Origin: a virus
Length of the DNA stretch: 64,000 bases
Direction: 5' to 3' (one strand)
Virus record (IMG/VR): IMGVR_UViG_3300023245_000013
Shown: positions 17,064 to 20,559 of the stretch, piece by piece
Numbering within the stretch: position 1 is the stretch's first letter
Layout: each line of letters begins with the position of its first letter
The notes under the pieces: model-generated
What the model was told of the DNA's origin: nothing
The model's input: only the letters and a program-made list of their open reading frames with translations
Databases searched by the model: none
Position numbers and translations under genes: made by a program

Positions 17064-17483
17064 ATGAAAAAAGCATTAGACAACCAGTAAGTACACCCTT
17101 CTACAGAGAAGAAAAACTTAAAGCTTTACATCGTCGTAAGACGAGACCTCGCTCCTGGAGCGCAGGCAACTCAAGGAATGCATTCATTCCACGTATTCAA
17201 TCAAGAATACACAGCCATTTATGAAAAATGGTTATCGAATCCATATTTAGGATTCTTATCAGTCAAAGACGAGCAAGAACTCATCGAGCTCCGAGACAAA
17301 CTCACGCAAAAAGGTATTAATTTCAGTTCCTTCCAGGAGCCTGACCTCGACAACCAGTTCACGTCTATTACCGTAGAACCAGGGAAAGAATCTGCCCGTT
17401 GGTTATCTAGTCTACCACTTGCTTTCAAAGAATTTACGAATCAACCAACTCTCAAGAGTTGTAATTGTAAAGAAGCCGCATGA
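17064..17483 (+). CDS. Pth2-like peptidyl-tRNA hydrolase with in-frame TAA at codon 9
   Basis: MKKALDNQ*VHPSTEKKNL-KLYIVVRRDLAPGAQATQGMH...VKDEQELIEL...FQEPDLDNQFTSI...LSSLPL; the Pth2 first strand lies upstream of the next ATG (17178), so only ATG 17064 covers the domain. Confidence 0.7.
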
Positions 17484-17504: not shown

Positions 17505-17551
17505 GGTGCGAGAGCTTTTGGCTCATGGGACATTCGATTGTCCCCGCACCA
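17505..17551 (+). ncRNA. anticodon-less mini-tRNA, type A1
   Basis: GGTGCG/CGCACC acceptor, one hairpin GAGC/GCTC, T-like arm GGGAC-ATTCGATT-GTCCC. Confidence 0.65.
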
Positions 17552-17555
17552 CTAC

Positions 17556-17604
17556 GGCGGATGCATAAGCACCAGTTCAGGTTAAAGTCCTGAATCCGCC
17601 ACCA
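17556..17604 (+). ncRNA. anticodon-less mini-tRNA, type B1
   Basis: GGCGGAT/ATCCGCC acceptor plus ACCA, GCATAAGCAC linker, T-like arm TCAGG-TTAAAGT-CCTGA. Confidence 0.7.
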
Positions 17605-17678
17605 GACGGGATAGCTCAGCGGTTAGAGCACCAGGCCTTAAAAACCTGGGGACGAGAGTTCGAATCTTTCTCCTGTCA
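17605..17678 (+). tRNA. atypical tRNA with 9-nt anticodon loop CCUUAAAAA (UUA or UAA reading)
   Basis: Acceptor GACGGGA/TCCTGTC, canonical D arm, CCAGG/CCTGG stem, short variable loop, GTTCGAAT T loop. Confidence 0.8.
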
Positions 17679-17714
17679 CAACAAAAGTTCATTGACGTGT
17701 TGGAATTTAAAAAA

Positions 17715-17768
17715 GGCGTGAGAGTCCATTAGGGATTCGCGGGAGATTCGTTTCTTCCCACGCCACCA
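17715..17768 (+). ncRNA. anticodon-less mini-tRNA, type A2
   Basis: GGCGTG/CACGCC plus ACCA, hairpin GAGTCC/GGATTC, T-like arm GGGAG-ATTCGTTT-CTTCC. Confidence 0.7.
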
Positions 17769-17769
17769 C

Positions 17770-17815
17770 GGCCCCTGCATTAGCACTAGAGGAAGAGAAA
17801 GTCTTCCTGGGGCCT
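17770..17815 (+). ncRNA. anticodon-less mini-tRNA, type B2
   Basis: GGCCCC/GGGGCC, GCATTAGCACTAG linker, AGGAAG-AGAAAGT-CTTCCT. Confidence 0.65.
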
Positions 17816-17818
17816 CTT

Positions 17819-17898
17819 GGTGAGGTAGCTCAGTTGGTTCAGAGCACCAGGCTTTAAAACCCTGGAGGTCGAAGGTTCAAGTCCTTCCCTCACCACCA
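17819..17898 (+). tRNA. atypical tRNA with 9-nt anticodon loop CUUUAAAAC (UUA or UAA reading)
   Basis: GGTGAGG/CCTCACC plus ACCA, canonical D and T arms, CCAGG/CCTGG stem. Confidence 0.8.
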
Positions 17899-17899
17899 C

Positions 17900-17945
17900 G
17901 CCGCTTGCATTAGCACTAGAATAGGTGAGATTCCTGTTAGCGGCA
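17900..17945 (+). ncRNA. anticodon-less mini-tRNA, type B3
   Basis: GCCGCT/AGCGGC, GCATTAGCACTAG linker, AATAGG-TGAGATT-CCTGTT. Confidence 0.65.
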
Positions 17946-17948
17946 CTT

Positions 17949-18091
17949 CCTGGAGTAGCTCAGTTGGTTAGAGCACCACCCTGATAAATGAGGAAAAGGA
18001 TTGAAACGCAACCTGCGTGGCCACAAGGGTTGTGAAGTAGAGAATTGGAATCGAACGGTGGGGGTCGGGGGTTCGAGCCCTTCCTCCAGGA
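17949..18091 (+). tRNA. tRNA-Ile(GAU) with ~69-nt insertion at the 3' side of the anticodon loop
   Basis: CCTGGAG/CTCCAGG, D arm, CCACC-CTGATAA-[insert 17988-18056]-GGTGG, GGTTCGAGC T loop. Confidence 0.8.
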
Positions 18092-18097
18092 CAATTT

Positions 18098-18264
18098 CCT
18101 GCGATAGCTTAGATATGTTAAAGCACCACACTGATAATGTGGAAGACGAACCGAAAGGACTCAGTTCGGGATGCAAACACAAAAACTCACTTGCGTGGCC
18201 ACAAGAGTGAGTTAGTAGTTGATGTTGAAGAAATGATGGGGGGCAGAACCCTCTCGCGGGACCA
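18098..18264 (+). tRNA. tRNA-Ile(GAU) with ~89-nt insertion at the variable loop/T-stem junction
   Basis: CCTGCGA/TCGCGGG plus ACCA, CCACA-CTGATAA-TGTGG, insert ~18149-18237, non-canonical T loop GGCAGAA. Confidence 0.7.
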
Positions 18265-18324
18265 TTATAATGAGCAGTGAGATGCTTGGGGAGGCGCTGT
18301 TCTCATAAACAACTTCCCCCACAT

Positions 18325-18376
18325 GGCGTGAGAATCTGAAAGAAGATTCGCGTGAGATTCGTTTCTCCCCACGCCA
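18325..18376 (+). ncRNA. anticodon-less mini-tRNA, type A3
   Basis: GGCGTG/CACGCC, hairpin GAATCT/AGATTC, GTGAG-ATTCGTTT-CTCCC; clear paralogue of A2. Confidence 0.65.
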
Positions 18377-18433
18377 CAACATGGGCGGATTGCACCAAGA
18401 TTTTTAAGGAAATGTTCGAACGAGTACTTAAAA

Positions 18434-18508
18434 GGATGGAAGGCGCAAAACTAGATGGCTTAGCGGCCATAAGAAAAGTTGTAGGTTCGATTCCTATTCC
18501 GTTCACCA
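18434..18508 (+). tRNA. degenerate tRNA (UAG-containing 6-nt loop)
   Basis: GGATGGA/TCCGTTC plus ACCA, good T arm, poor D arm, ATGGC-TTAGCG-GCCAT. Confidence 0.5.
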
Positions 18509-18530
18509 AACAATAAAAAAAACGAAAGCT

Positions 18531-19043
18531 ATGGTAGAGACAAACAGAATTACACCCCAAGTGGTGATTGATGCTTTATGTGAGAGATTAAACCCGAAGC
18601 CTGGAGCGAGAATACTAGAACCATCTGCAGGCACAGGAGTATTGGCGGACGGGGTTCAAGAAAAATTCCAACAGTGTAAAATTGACTGTGTAGAACTTAA
18701 TCAAGAATGCCGAGTCACACTGAAAGAAAAAGAATATGAGTTGGTTGGCTCAGACTTCTTCCGATTCGAAGCCCAGACACCATATGATTACGTCATTGCC
18801 TGTCCTAACTTTCGAGACAATGTCGATTGCAAACACATCATGCACATGTATGACCAACTTGCACCAGGCGGAACAATCTCAAGCTTAACATCTCCTTTTT
18901 GGATGGTTGGAGAGACTTAACTGCACAAAGAATTCCGTGAGTGGCTTCAAGATAAGAACTACTCCGTGACAATGGTCCCAGATTATTCATTTGTTGAGGA
19001 TTACAAAACTGTACCCTCAGCTATAATCCGAATCAAGAAATGA
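18531..19043 (+). CDS. class I SAM-dependent (DNA adenine) methyltransferase with in-frame TAA at 18918-18920
   Basis: RILEPSAGTG, DCVELN, SDFF, VIACPNF; after the TAA the frame continues LHKEFREWL...DYSF...VPSAIIRIKK to TGA overlapping the next ATG. Confidence 0.65.
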
Positions 19044-19456
19044 AAAAGTTCAGACCAATTCAGTTCAGATGGAACGAAGCTTTAGGTGAAAAAAGTTGCC
19101 CGTATGCTTACAGATGGGTGTTCAATTTCTACTTATTTTCGTTCCGAGTTCACAACTTCATAAGAAGTGAACCAATCGCGCACCAGCATGACCATGCTTG
19201 GGATTTTATCACTTTCATACTGAAAGGAGGCTATTTAGACATAAGCCCAAATGGAATCGATAAGTTAAGACAAGGAAGCATTCGCTTTAGAAAAGCAGAA
19301 CATATACATAATGTAGTGCTTCCTAAAGATGTGTCTTGCTGGACATTTGTATTAGCGTTTAAGCCACGACGAAAATGGGGTTTTTGGATTAATGGAAAAT
19401 TGAAACGTCCATTAAAGTATTTTCATAAATATGGTCACTTGCCTTGCGAGGATTAA
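19040..19456 (+). CDS. cupin-like hypothetical protein
   Basis: HQHDHAWDFITFILKGGY...FRKAEHIHNV. Confidence 0.55.
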   Translation: MKKFRPIQFRWNEALGEKSCPYAYRWVFNFYLFSFRVHNFIRSEPIAHQHDHAWDFITFILKGGYLDISPNGIDKLRQGSIRFRKAEHIHNVVLPKDVSCWTFVLAFKPRRKWGFWINGKLKRPLKYFHKYGHLPCED

Positions 19457-20202
19457 AAACAAAAAAAATAATGGATTGGTTTAAAAAAGTAATGGATTAT
19501 AATGACAAGTTTGAGTGTGTGGATATTAATTTTGGCACCGAGTTGGGTGGTGAAATTAGTTTTGAAGTCCAATACTGGAATGGAGACAGAATGTCTTACA
19601 ACTTTGTACTGATGTACTACATGAGCCCAATGGCATCAAACTTCTTTGATATAATAGATGAGTTTTGTGAAAAAACAGATTTAATCTTCTCTGAGTATGG
19701 AGATGTGTTTAAAAAAATAGACCAATTAAATGCTAAAGAAGAATCAGCGCAAGAAATGGCAAGCAAAATATCAAAACAGACTTACATTGTAAAAGACACA
19801 GAGTTTAATCCAGAAAGAAATCCTTCGTGGATGAAATCCTTGTACAGTATCGGAGAATCTTTGTCCGTGGAAATATTCGAGTTAGAAAGTCCAGAGAAAT
19901 CAAAGTATGGTATACATATGTCAACAAACTGCAATGACGCCATTCCATGCTGCTCTTATTTTCCAACCATTGTATTGACGCATATTGATGAATCAAAAAC
20001 CATTGATGAAGAAATAGAGAGAACACTAGAATATGCGATATGGTACTTTAAAGAGAATCCAGGCATAATAGACTACATCTATGATAGAAAAAACAAAGAT
20101 AAAATCAACATAAAGTTAGCCAAACTAGAAAATTCTGTCCCAGGTAAGGTGAAAGAATTCATGACATTAAAAGAATGGTTGATAACTTCAAAACCTAGTT
20201 AG
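19444..20202 (+). CDS. hypothetical protein
   Basis: 252-aa ORF. Confidence 0.6.
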   Translation: MRGLKTKKIMDWFKKVMDYNDKFECVDINFGTELGGEISFEVQYWNGDRMSYNFVLMYYMSPMASNFFDIIDEFCEKTDLIFSEYGDVFKKIDQLNAKEESAQEMASKISKQTYIVKDTEFNPERNPSWMKSLYSIGESLSVEIFELESPEKSKYGIHMSTNCNDAIPCCSYFPTIVLTHIDESKTIDEEIERTLEYAIWYFKENPGIIDYIYDRKNKDKINIKLAKLENSVPGKVKEFMTLKEWLITSKPS

Positions 20203-20221: not shown

Positions 20222-20425
20222 ATGGCTACTGTAGATAACACGAGATATTATATAGAATGGACTTCAAACTATACAGCTAAGCATCGCCCCAGGGTGGCTT
20301 GGACCAAATACTCTGGTCCATATTCCTCGTTACGAAGAGTTATGCAGGCTAAGAAAGATATTCTATCTTCACCGTATTGTGGAGACTGGCTGTATCGGAT
20401 AGCACATTACCACAAGGGGCGTTAG
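20222..20425 (+). CDS. hypothetical protein
   Basis: 67-aa ORF; stop overlaps the tRNA 5' end. Confidence 0.45.
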   Translation: MATVDNTRYYIEWTSNYTAKHRPRVAWTKYSGPYSSLRRVMQAKKDILSSPYCGDWLYRIAHYHKGR

Positions 20426-20487
20426 TTCAGAGGTAGAACATCAGGCTTTAACCCTGTACGTCAGGGGTTCGAACCCCCTACGCCCCT
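20416..20487 (+). tRNA. ochre suppressor tRNA (anticodon UUA)
   Basis: Canonical cloverleaf GGGGCGT/ACGCCCC, GTTC/GAAC D stem, TCAGG-CTTTAAC-CCTGT, AGGGG-TTCGAAC-CCCCT; anticodon TTA at 20448-20450. Confidence 0.85.
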
Positions 20488-20559
20488 CTTGAATTACAGA
20501 TAGAAAAAGGCCGCCCTTCGAACAGTTTTTATATTTGTAAAATTGATTACATTTGTAGA

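Follow-up and report, generated by a model that had tools for sequence, protein, structure and literature searches.

Conserved anticodon-less mini-tRNA genes beside a peptidyl-tRNA hydrolase gene in a large salt-lake phage, and their possible role at the tRNA acceptor end

Phage tRNA genes are commonly taken to help with codon usage or to replace tRNAs that host defences have cut. Synthetic acceptor-T minihelices and microhelices serve as substrates of RNase P, of the CCA-adding enzyme and of some synthetases (reviewed in PMC9976931). Plant mitochondrial t-elements have a tRNA-derived fold with a non-canonical cloverleaf; they lie at mRNA ends, where RNase P and RNase Z cleave them, and the small RNAs that result can accumulate (Forner et al. 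2007, PMC1920247). The tRNA array of phage T4 contains two stable RNAs that are not tRNAs, RNAC and RNAD (PMC3014915). RNAC carries a canonical T arm, CCGGG-UUCGAAU-CCCGG, adjoining its 3' end, and a PTH2 gene is absent from the T4 tRNA cluster. A full-text literature search turned up no phage for which anticodon-less mini-tRNA genes had been described. Here we analysed a 64-kb stretch of DNA (hereafter the window) from a large salt-lake phage, in which six genes of about 50 bases each correspond to just the upper, amino-acid-accepting half of a tRNA.

All features of the window given below lie on the plus strand, and loci from other phages are designated by L numbers. The first-pass annotation had proposed six elements of two types, A and B, lacking an anticodon arm. 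All six were located exactly, and in each the anticodon arm is indeed missing: every element folds alone as an acceptor stem, a small hairpin and a T-like arm, in which the acceptor and T-like stems, of 6 bp each, are stacked and only 14-20 nt separate the acceptor stem from the T-like arm. A1 (17505..17554, sub-family alpha) has the acceptor GGUGCG, a 5-bp hairpin, and a 6-bp T-like stem with loop UUCGAU and tail ACUA; its fold reaches a z-score of -5.15 against shuffled sequences, it scores 69 bits with model R1, and its orthologues lie immediately 3' of PTH2 at five of five loci. A2 (17715..17768, sub-family beta) has the acceptor GGCGUG, a 6-bp variable hairpin, the T-like loop UUCGUU and the tail ACCA (z = -4.04; R1, 78 bits), and orthologues were found among the relatives. 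A3 (18325..18379, also beta) has one U-C mismatch in its T-like stem and the tail ACAA (z = -3.46; R1, 73.8 bits), with orthologues in L130, L133, L135 and L138. B1 (17556..17604) combines the acceptor GGCGGA, the linker UGCAUAAGCACCAG, a 6-bp stem with a 7-nt loop and the tail ACCA (z = -4.09; model R2, 67 bits). B2 (17770..17818; acceptor GGCCCC, linker UGCAUUAGCACUAG, tail UCUU) and B3 (17900..17948; acceptor GCCGCU, the same linker as B2, tail ACUU) gave z-scores of -2.86 and -2.11 and R2 scores of 69 and 68.5 bits, respectively. Encoded CCA is no constant trait of the families: of the six elements, just A2 and B1 encode ACCA; the tails are ACCA, ACUA, ACAA, ACUU or UCUU, an N73-C74-N-N form common to most ordinary tRNA genes of this phage.

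The mini-tRNA genes (minis) and tRNA genes of the array are arranged head-to-tail with 0-2 nt between them. B1 leads without a gap into tRNA1 (17605..17679), which has a 9-nt anticodon loop, CCUUAAAAA, and matches the Rfam tRNA model at 59 bits with loop insertions. B2 likewise runs directly into tRNA2 (17819..17898; 9-nt anticodon loop CUUUAAAAC, encoded CCA, 68.8 bits), and B3 abuts a tRNA-Ile(GAU) gene (17949..18091; 49.9 bits) that is conserved in relatives and whose anticodon loop is followed by a 70-nt insert. The A-B-tRNA repeat proposed earlier stands for two units but does not extend to the whole array, B3 and its tRNA-Ile having no A partner and A3 being solitary. Between tRNA1 and A2 lies a conserved spacer (17680..17714; motif GTTCATTGAC(G/A)T(G/A)TTGGAAT at five loci) that may be a promoter or a processing signal; the spacer shows no match to the sigma-70 consensus. 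Further along, another gene resembling tRNA-Ile(GAU), its variable/T region carrying an insert (18098..18270), is recognised by reading the sequence and by a partial 21-bit Rfam match. A suggested seventh mini (18288..18323) is a true hairpin of 7 bp with an 18-nt loop and the tail CACA (z = -2.37), and its stem covaries among the window, L130, L133 and L135, but it lacks a T arm, and conservation does not extend to its anticodon-like loop. The array closes with a tRNA-like RNA of about 125 nt (18385..18510) that has a 7-bp acceptor, a long internal hairpin, a canonical T arm with loop UUCGAUU and the tail ACCA; it has a partial 23-bit Rfam tRNA match and is conserved in L130 and L135 with acceptor covariation.

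Two protein genes border the RNA cluster. On the left, a gene for a PTH2-like peptidyl-tRNA hydrolase (17064..17483) contains an in-frame TAA at 17088-17090; read from 17091, the ORF matches Pfam PF01981 at 29.4 bits (cut-off 23) over profile positions 1-103, and the TAA together with both flanking peptides is conserved in five phages. On the right, a small SAM-methyltransferase gene (18531..19043), with weak Pfam matches to the MTS and Methyltransf families, has an in-frame TAA at 18918-18920, and syntenic 129-aa gene calls are present in L130, L131 and L135. Genome-wide stop-codon recoding is unsupported by ORF statistics. Neither a CCA-adding enzyme nor SmpB (PF01668) was found in 141 kb of phage sequence, which is about 64% complete. 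A Ro60 gene lies 3.5 kb upstream, in the same conserved neighbourhood.

The prediction that standard tRNA finders would miss the minis proved right: none of the six was detected by ARAGORN or by Rfam cmscan, even at E<=10. Compared with the tRNA family RF00005, the acceptor/T stack is preserved in 24 copies, with 6+6 bp instead of the canonical 7+5, and the discriminator and CCA-type end are present in the N73-C74 form, while the anticodon arm with its 7-nt loop is absent and scores stay below the gathering cut-off. A strict geometric scan of the plus strand of the window, requiring G1 and a 12-bp acceptor plus T stack free of mismatches, with no more than one G-U in either stem, gave seven matches, five of which are these elements within 440 nt; shuffled sequence gave 0-1 matches. 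In the 141 kb, minis of both types were confined to the PTH2-adjacent cluster, and the other two tRNA clusters of the window have none. A reading of the minis as tRNA-Sec was rejected on score.

Outside the clade, R1 and R2 gave no significant match, including in the mycobacteriophages Myrna and Bxz1, so that families A and B are clade-specific while the architecture is not. An INPHARED DNA search with the 2-kb region as query returned ordinary tRNA matches only, and INPHARED searches with the neighbouring 252-aa ORF (19444-20199) and a Cas3-like gene returned nothing, as did IMG/VR single-protein scans with the PTH2 and methyltransferase queries; PDB sequence searches with the same two proteins gave nothing informative. 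A terminase search led only to fragments of this phage itself, at 100% identity, and the mini cluster was on none of them. The exact B-linker pattern had at least 118 matches in IMG/VR, none with a B fold, which are therefore chance matches; the A-beta core pattern had no match in IMG/VR and one in JGI metagenomes (L138). Antisense targets of the B linker within the window were not above chance. The stretch is present in 20 salt-lake sequencing runs, all DNA, and phage contigs from four runs showed zero differences from the window, so population variation gives no evidence.

The compensatory changes reported between copies are borne out, pairing being kept with double changes, and they now extend to homologues in five related phages. 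Within the window, the three type A copies are 96% paired with six pairs altered on both sides, and the three type B copies 100% paired with eight such pairs, against 36-61% in slid controls. With relatives included, 97.2% of cells are paired in type A (14 copies, double-sided change in 10 of 18 pairs) and 99.3% in type B (10 distinct copies, 8 of 15 pairs), against 37-63% in slid controls; such counts overstate independent events, as they come from paralogues and close orthologues in alignments fitted to the model. B1 has a mean identity of 96.7% over five phages and B2 of 97.3% over three. For the coding sequence of PTH2 the figure is 81.8%, with about 70% at third positions, and for the real tRNAs it is 80-89%. 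Both families are kept in five related metagenome phages, at the same site between the PTH2-like and small methyltransferase genes. The B2-tRNA2-B3 block is missing in L130 and L135, indicating that part of the set is dispensable.

The minis descend from tRNA genes that lost their anticodon arm. The route is illustrated by the tRNA1 orthologues without an anticodon arm in L132 (1430-1481) and L135 (1488-1539), in which only this arm is lost and the D stem is still paired through a C-G to U-A change. Such clear descent by deletion is what decaying, functionless tRNA pseudogenes would also show, but 97-99% pairing with many compensatory changes, and conservation above both the neighbouring coding sequence and the real tRNAs across five phages, contradict decay and make this explanation scarcely credible. 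The pairing (97% for A, 99% for B) and the identity of B1 and B2 above that of PTH2 indicate selected RNAs. We conclude that the minis are structured, tRNA-derived RNAs under purifying selection in at least five related phages.

Selection is not limited to the stems. Loops, linker and discriminator are as conserved as the stems, pointing to a specific partner; in the window copies the 14-nt B linker is nearly invariant, with two variable positions, and each B sub-family retains its own acceptor stem and discriminator. A linker that stays constant while stems covary could be a binding site, with the minis as scaffolds or cofactors for the Ro60/Y-RNA machinery, the methyltransferase or an RNA repair enzyme. 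The Ro60 gene upstream fits this idea, as does the fact that bacterial Y RNAs mimic tRNA and that mycobacteriophages encoding Ro60 exist (PMC4201824). However, the best match to the YrlA model (RF02553) reaches 22.3 bits against a cut-off of 69 and covers B1 plus half a tRNA, the Ro-binding stem is absent, and the minis are open at the acceptor end while YrlA is open on the anticodon side, so that we regard such a scaffold as very improbable. The acceptor identities and discriminators, distinct and conserved per sub-family, would also suit dedicated amino-acid carriers for non-ribosomal aminoacyl transfer, invisible to the ribosome by design. Non-proteinogenic tRNA-Gly, which serves Fem transferases, is a precedent for such carriers, but no transferase gene was recognised near the cluster and the idea appears far-fetched.

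The position of the minis raises the question of whether they work in cis. They could be processing or insulation elements like t-elements, providing sites for RNase P and a 3' nuclease and preventing misfolding of the odd tRNAs with the PTH2 and methyltransferase mRNAs, the released minis having no function of their own. The outer copies do show a tRNA-like fold without a full cloverleaf at an mRNA end: A-alpha starts 22 nt past the PTH2 stop codon, and directly ahead of the methyltransferase gene comes either the last A-beta or the 125-nt element (in L133, about 24 nt separate the end of the last A-beta from the methyltransferase start). In L135, a plain hairpin with an identical ACUU tail replaces B3 ahead of tRNA-Ile, helix 2 of type A is free to evolve while it stays paired, and t-elements are documented RNase P/Z signals. 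Yet the inner copies are bordered by other RNAs only, the real tRNAs already supply such sites, and up to two tandem minis precede a tRNA. Moreover, B1 and B2 are conserved in sequence above the tRNAs, including loops and the 14-nt linker, which a structural signal would not need, and the window's other two tRNA clusters do without minis. A purely cis-acting role is therefore somewhat unlikely, in our judgement.

We tentatively favour the view that the six elements may be functional genes for tRNA mimics that work through the acceptor end and, lacking an anticodon, take no part in decoding. The array would be transcribed as one precursor, host RNase P would cleave the 5' end of each mini, and host 3' trimming and the CCA-adding enzyme would complete the 3' ends, yielding stable RNAs, about 45-50 nt long, whose acceptor ends resemble those of tRNA. 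These could serve as abundant competing or sacrificial substrates for enzymes acting on tRNA 3' ends, putatively host defence toxins of the MenT, ToxSAS/CapRel, HEPN and TacT kinds, or synthetases, and the adjacent PTH2-like hydrolase might clear acylated or peptidylated mini ends. Acceptor-end toxins are documented (PMC10435456), and the PTH2 of jumbo phages has been proposed to be part of tRNA conflict (PMC7824862). Decoys or PTH2-linked substrates are what we infer as a best guess. The T-like loops are non-canonical, with A58 missing in A-beta, UUC missing in B and no D-loop GG, so recognition by RNase P and the CCA enzyme is an assumption; likewise charging is uncertain, as neither G3-U70 nor any other known anticodon-independent identity set was recognised in the minis. 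Should PTH2 by itself be able to repair real tRNAs, the need for a decoy would not be obvious.

The adjacency to PTH2, which the first-pass annotation had linked to function, is not a local accident, as ACCA-ending minihelices or mini-tRNAs also follow PTH2 in phages of independent lineages, Myrna (L140:2837-2963) and Bxz1 (L141:2862-3062). In Myrna, the PTH gene is followed by a 12-bp minihelix with ACCA, a 55-nt mini-tRNA with ACCA, a second minihelix and a CUA suppressor tRNA; in Bxz1, several tRNA-like RNAs with ACCA ends come after PTH. GenBank lists these elements as tRNA-Ser or leaves them unannotated, and Myrna gene 85 is a merged false tRNA. In several IMG/VR phages, 9-nt-loop tRNAs, tRNAs with a capped anticodon arm and minihelices flank PTH2. 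If the class is defined as an acceptor plus T RNA that has no decoding loop and immediately adjoins a phage PF01981 gene, often accompanied by a 9-nt-loop or suppressor tRNA, it comprises the window, its five close relatives, Myrna, Bxz1 and the IMG/VR loci L137, L146-L149 and L151, and such RNAs are absent beside PTH2 in L139, L142, L144 and L150.

This recurrence bears on a further possibility, that the minis are codon-independent peptide acceptors forming with PTH2 a tag-less functional analogue of tmRNA. A charged mini would enter the empty A site of a ribosome that has stalled, take over the nascent chain and drop off, and PTH2 would free the peptide, a use conceivable for non-stop ribosomes made by suppressor tRNAs or host nucleases. 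Aminoacyl minihelices can serve as 50S A-site substrates in vitro. The architecture resembles the tRNA-like domain of tmRNA, the minis stand constantly beside PTH2 and suppressor-type or 9-nt-loop tRNAs in distant phages, and the PTH2 gene requires UAA read-through in five of five relatives. Against this, no SmpB-like gene was found in the 141 kb of phage sequence, G3-U70 for AlaRS is absent and charging is putative, and EF-Tu delivery without decoding is normally very inefficient, which makes such rescue quite improbable. More generally, PTH2, anticodon-less mimics and tRNAs with 9-nt or suppressor loops could constitute one widespread phage module acting on tRNA acceptor ends and not in decoding, through tag-less tmRNA-like rescue or through sacrificial-substrate defence against 3'-end toxins. 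We consider this generalisation rather unlikely. PTH2 genes may just happen to sit in tRNA arrays, where tRNA derivatives arise, and the adjacency would then be functionally meaningless. If true, the module would span from salt-lake jumbo phages to culturable mycobacteriophages.

Altogether, this phage maintains tRNA genes that are unable to decode and that are conserved more tightly than its decoding tRNAs, next to a peptidyl-tRNA hydrolase gene whose reading frame requires stop-codon read-through. These features point towards a level of phage-host conflict, or of control over translation, that works at the tRNA acceptor end. Structurally analogous RNAs follow PTH in Myrna and Bxz1; both phages can be grown on Mycobacterium smegmatis, which makes the question accessible to bench work. 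In practical terms, mini genes are invisible to tRNA finders and are unannotated or misannotated in GenBank.

Several known systems resemble the minis in part. Like the tRNA-like domain of tmRNA, they have an acceptor stem, a T arm and a reduced D region and no anticodon arm, but they differ in having neither an mRNA-like domain nor G3-U70 and in being about 50 nt long compared with about 360 nt. An identification as tmRNA was rejected: position 3-70 is C-G, U-A or U-G, SmpB is lacking from the sequence searched, and ARAGORN finds no tmRNA. With YrlA and other bacterial Y RNAs (RF02553; PMC4201824) they share tRNA mimicry and occurrence in Ro60-encoding phages, but YrlA has a closed acceptor end, an open anticodon side and a Ro-binding stem. 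As with RNAC and RNAD of T4, they are found inside a phage tRNA array, but these two RNAs are 139 and 119 nt long, fold otherwise and show no sequence relation to the minis. The Myrna and Bxz1 elements likewise end in ACCA and lie directly 3' of a PTH2-type gene and before a suppressor-type tRNA, yet have no sequence similarity to A and B (13-14 bits with R1 and R2). Synthetic minihelices possess the same 12-bp acceptor/T stack, discriminator and CCA-type tail but are laboratory constructs, whereas the minis are encoded in nature and carry an additional hairpin (A) or a conserved 14-nt linker (B). Finally, while t-elements are single cis signals beside mRNAs, the minis are at least six tandem genes inside a tRNA array, falling into two sequence-conserved families and tied to PTH2.

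The phage is a myovirus, as large terminase and tail sheath genes were found, and its DNA is present in ~20 salt-lake metagenome runs with no difference in the contigs compared. The window corresponds to bases 869-64868, read on the minus strand, of a virus record of 141,051 bases (G+C 38.7%), which follows the standard code overall. Ro60/TROVE, a Cas3-like helicase, two ClpB-like ATPases, an RNA ligase and the CBASS inhibitor Acb3 are encoded in the window. ARAGORN detected fifteen tRNAs, grouped in three clusters, and a solitary ochre-suppressor tRNA at 20416. The first cluster, that of the mini-tRNA elements, occupies all of the 1,048 nt that separate a PTH2-like gene (17064-17483) from a small methyltransferase gene (18531-19043).

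Sequence reading confirmed the six elements where the first-pass annotation had placed them, namely three of type A (A1 17505-17554, A2 17715-17768, A3 18325-18379) and three of type B (B1 17556-17604, B2 17770-17818, B3 17900-17948). Each folds alone into a 6-bp acceptor stem, a middle piece (a short hairpin in type A, a 3-bp mini-hairpin within a 14-nt linker in type B) and a 6-bp T-like stem stacked immediately upon the 3' strand of the acceptor, which makes the acceptor/T stack 12 bp long, as in a tRNA (7+5). The anticodon arm is absent from all six folds, whose z-scores range from -2.1 to -5.2 against dinucleotide shuffles. Within the local set of three copies each, type A shows 96% pairing and has six pairs in which both partners differ, and type B shows 100% pairing and has eight such pairs, its linker UGCAU(U/A)AGCAC(U/C)AG being nearly invariant; sliding the partner columns as a control lowers pairing to 36-61%. 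Strict geometric criteria, applied to the full window, picked out seven plus-strand candidates, five of them these elements, all within 440 nt, and shuffled sequence gave 0-1. As had been anticipated, standard tRNA finders miss the elements, since ARAGORN and Rfam report none of the six, even at E<=10.

No close homologue was found in INPHARED, and every match of the terminase search was an identical fragment of this phage. Relatives of the PTH2-like protein occur in metagenome contigs (identity 65-82%), of which four distinct types were readable (L130/L131, L132, L133/L134 and L135). All four keep the order PTH2, RNA cluster (0.9-1.1 kb), methyltransferase; L130 additionally carries Ro60, and L131 carries Acb3 and an ochre-suppressor tRNA. 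Covariance models built from type A (R1) and type B (R2) copies recovered 2-3 type A copies (E 1e-12 to 1e-18) and 1-3 type B copies per related locus, and on the 141,051-base record only the known three of each. A pattern scan of JGI metagenomes added a sixth locus, L138. According to these searches and the locus comparison, the sequence families A and B are restricted to the salt-lake clade, while their architecture and neighbourhood occur beyond it. Covariation among homologues, on which the first-pass annotation depended, is present in the pooled alignments: 14 type A copies are 97.2% paired with both sides changed in 10 of 18 pairs, and 10 distinct type B copies 99.3% paired with both sides changed in 8 of 15, counts that overstate independent events because paralogues were pooled with close orthologues and the alignments had been fitted to R1 and R2.

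Mean pairwise nucleotide identity among loci is 81.8% for the PTH2 coding sequence (~70% at third positions), 75.9% for the 5' part of the methyltransferase gene, 89% for tRNA1 (17605-17679) and 80% for tRNA2 (17819-17898). It reaches 96.7% for B1 (acceptor GGCGGA, tail ACCA) and 97.3% for B2 (GGCCCC, UCUU), and is 87% for both B3 (GCCGC, ACUU) and A-alpha (GGUGCG), always the first element 3' of PTH2. A-beta (GGCGUG), of which each locus has one or two copies, shows 79-84%, and its differences cluster in helix 2, which covaries. B1 and B2, loops and tails included, are under tighter constraint than the adjoining decoding-type tRNAs, which excludes simple pseudogenes and leaves pseudogenes as an explanation scarcely credible. 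The same conservation argues for a specific partner over a purely structural signal. Processing and insulation signals similar to t-elements (PMC1920247) would fit the position of the mini-tRNAs and the free evolution of helix 2, but B1 and B2 are conserved in sequence, the mini-tRNAs lie in tandem beside real tRNAs and the window's other two tRNA clusters have none, so that we consider such a role rather unlikely.

At L132:1430-1481 and L135:1488-1539, the orthologue of tRNA1 has lost the anticodon arm alone, leaving a 52-nt mini-tRNA with acceptor, D and T arms, and the D stem stays paired between the two loci through a C-G to U-A change. This indicates that mini-tRNAs originate by deletion from tRNA genes and that the arm is dispensable for whatever tRNA1 does. 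The B linker resembles a reduced D arm with a GCACCAG/GCACUAG stretch after it; in neighbouring tRNAs, this stretch connects the D stem to the anticodon stem. Elements are separated from each other and from tRNAs by 0-2 nt, and their 3' tails are ACCA, ACUA, ACAA, ACUU or UCUU. They share this N73-C74-N-N form with 11 of the 15 ordinary tRNA genes of the phage, only one of which encodes the full CCA. Such varied tails mean that an encoded CCA is no family trait. The earlier interpretation is supported in part, in that selected tRNA-derived mimics linked to PTH2 are borne out by covariation and the loci. The elements seem suited to the host maturation that tRNAs undergo, by RNase P, 3' trimming and CCA addition; no gene for a CCA-adding enzyme was found within the 141,051-base partial genome record. 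Judged by sequence comparison, the six are non-decoding RNAs that derive from tRNAs, are under selection, have acceptor ends like those of tRNAs and are tied to PTH2.

The cluster contains other unusual features. tRNA1 and tRNA2 have 9-nt anticodon loops, CCUUAAAAA and CUUUAAAAC. Both tRNA-Ile(GAU) genes hold long inserts at different positions (17985-18060 and 18150-18245), which share a hairpin whose loop GCGUGGCCACA contains the 8-nt palindrome GUGGCCAC; kept in all related loci with at most 1-2 loop letters changed, this hairpin may serve as a kissing loop or as a site at the DNA level. A ~125-nt tRNA-like RNA (18385-18510) has a 7-bp acceptor, a canonical T arm (loop UUCGAUU), a long internal hairpin and an ACCA tail; it is kept in L130 and L135 with acceptor covariation, missing in L133 and of another form in L138. 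The spacer at 17680-17714 holds a motif, GTTCATTGAC(G/A)T(G/A)TTGGAAT, kept in five phages ahead of the first A-beta; it does not match the sigma-70 consensus and is a possible promoter, of phage or Bacteroidota type, or a possible processing signal. At 18255-18290, ahead of a seventh hairpin (18288-18323), the stretch CCAUUAUAAUGAGCAGUGAGAUGCUUG, which includes a small AGCA/UGCU hairpin, is kept in the window, L130, L133 and L135.

When reading begins at 17091, the PTH2-like gene scores higher than the Pfam PTH2 cut-off, the match covering profile positions 1-103. Its sole start codon, at 17064, precedes an in-frame TAA at codon 9 (MKKALDNQ*VHPS...KLYIVVRRDL), kept with the peptides on either side in all five related phages (window 17064-17483; upstream of the called PTH2 genes in L130, L132, L133 and L135). 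As no alternative start codon follows the TAA, expression is predicted to require UAA read-through. The methyltransferase frame also crosses an in-frame TAA (18918-18920), and gene calls in the relatives are likewise 129 aa. The ochre-suppressor tRNA (anticodon UUA, 20416-20488) lies 1.4 kb downstream of the methyltransferase gene, and L131 has one too.

A tblastn search of INPHARED located PTH2-type genes in 218 phage records, of which 206 belong to mycobacteriophages. Directly after the PTH gene (gp84) of Myrna come a 12-bp minihelix ending in ACCA, a 55-nt mini-tRNA (acceptor, hairpin, T arm with loop UUCGAGU) also ending in ACCA, a second minihelix and a CUA suppressor tRNA. Myrna gene 85 (L140:2848-2927), "tRNA-Ser" in GenBank, is most of the first minihelix fused with the 55-nt anticodon-less mini-tRNA and no real tRNA; ARAGORN and Rfam leave it uncalled. 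In Bxz1, several tRNA-like RNAs ending in ACCA follow the PTH gene, including a 58-nt mini-tRNA with a canonical T arm, and a CUA tRNA comes next. Ten IMG/VR and three metagenome or INPHARED loci with PTH2 homologues were also examined. In six of the 13 (L137, L146-L149, L151), which belong to unrelated IMG/VR phages, a tRNA with a 9-nt loop NNUAA(U/C)GNN adjoins PTH2, preceded in five by a tRNA with a lengthened or capped anticodon arm (L149 has a tetraloop there). Minihelices occur at L137:4874-4904 and L151:1445-1476, L143 has a CUA suppressor and an 8-nt-loop tRNA, and downstream of PTH2 L136 has two ordinary tRNA-Cys genes (~340 nt) and L145 a CUA suppressor tRNA (~300 nt). Nothing of this kind lies next to PTH2 in four of the 13 (L139, L142, L144, L150). 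The closest INPHARED PTH2 homologue (L139:2987-3315, 49.5% identity), from a 735-kb uncultured phage (LR756501.1), lacks an adjoining mini-tRNA and contains in-frame TAG codons, which together with two CUA tRNAs 2 kb downstream are consistent with TAG recoding in this megaphage.

That PTH2, mimics and suppressor-type tRNAs occur together would be accounted for if the mini-tRNAs were codon-independent peptide acceptors coupled to PTH2 for ribosome rescue; however, an SmpB-like partner was not found in the 141,051-base partial genome record, and we judge this role improbable. A protein-binding scaffold, for instance for Ro60, has a slightly lower probability still, the YrlA score being far under the cut-off, and aminoacyl carriers in non-ribosomal transfer are very improbable. 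Our leading explanation, tentatively held, is that mini-tRNAs are competing or sacrificial substrates for enzymes acting on tRNA 3' ends. They would be processed to stable RNAs of ~45-50 nt and work via the acceptor end; candidate targets would be defence toxins that act on the acceptor end, of which PMC10435456 lists MenT, ToxSAS/CapRel, HEPN and TacT/ItaT among others, and PTH2 would remove acylated ends. We rank competing substrate first, followed by processing signal, ribosome rescue, scaffold, carrier and pseudogene. Mini-tRNA function is open to testing in culturable mycobacteriophages.

A full-text literature search returned no description of anticodon-less mini-tRNA genes in phages. 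Reviews of jumbo-phage RNA systems name PTH2 and Ro60 and not such mini RNAs (PMC7824862), and in a large survey of structured RNAs from viruses, "tRNA-like" candidates come up only in general terms (PMC10690425). The nearest described RNAs are plant mitochondrial t-elements, laboratory minihelices, the tRNA-like domain of tmRNA, YrlA, and T4 RNAC and RNAD, tRNA-cluster RNAs whose roles are still unknown (PMC3014915); the 3' end of RNAC carries a canonical T arm. In none of these cases do stand-alone ~50-nt mini-tRNA genes make up a family in a phage tRNA array by PTH2. The mini-tRNAs belong to a known kind, that of tRNA mimics, of which they would be a new form.
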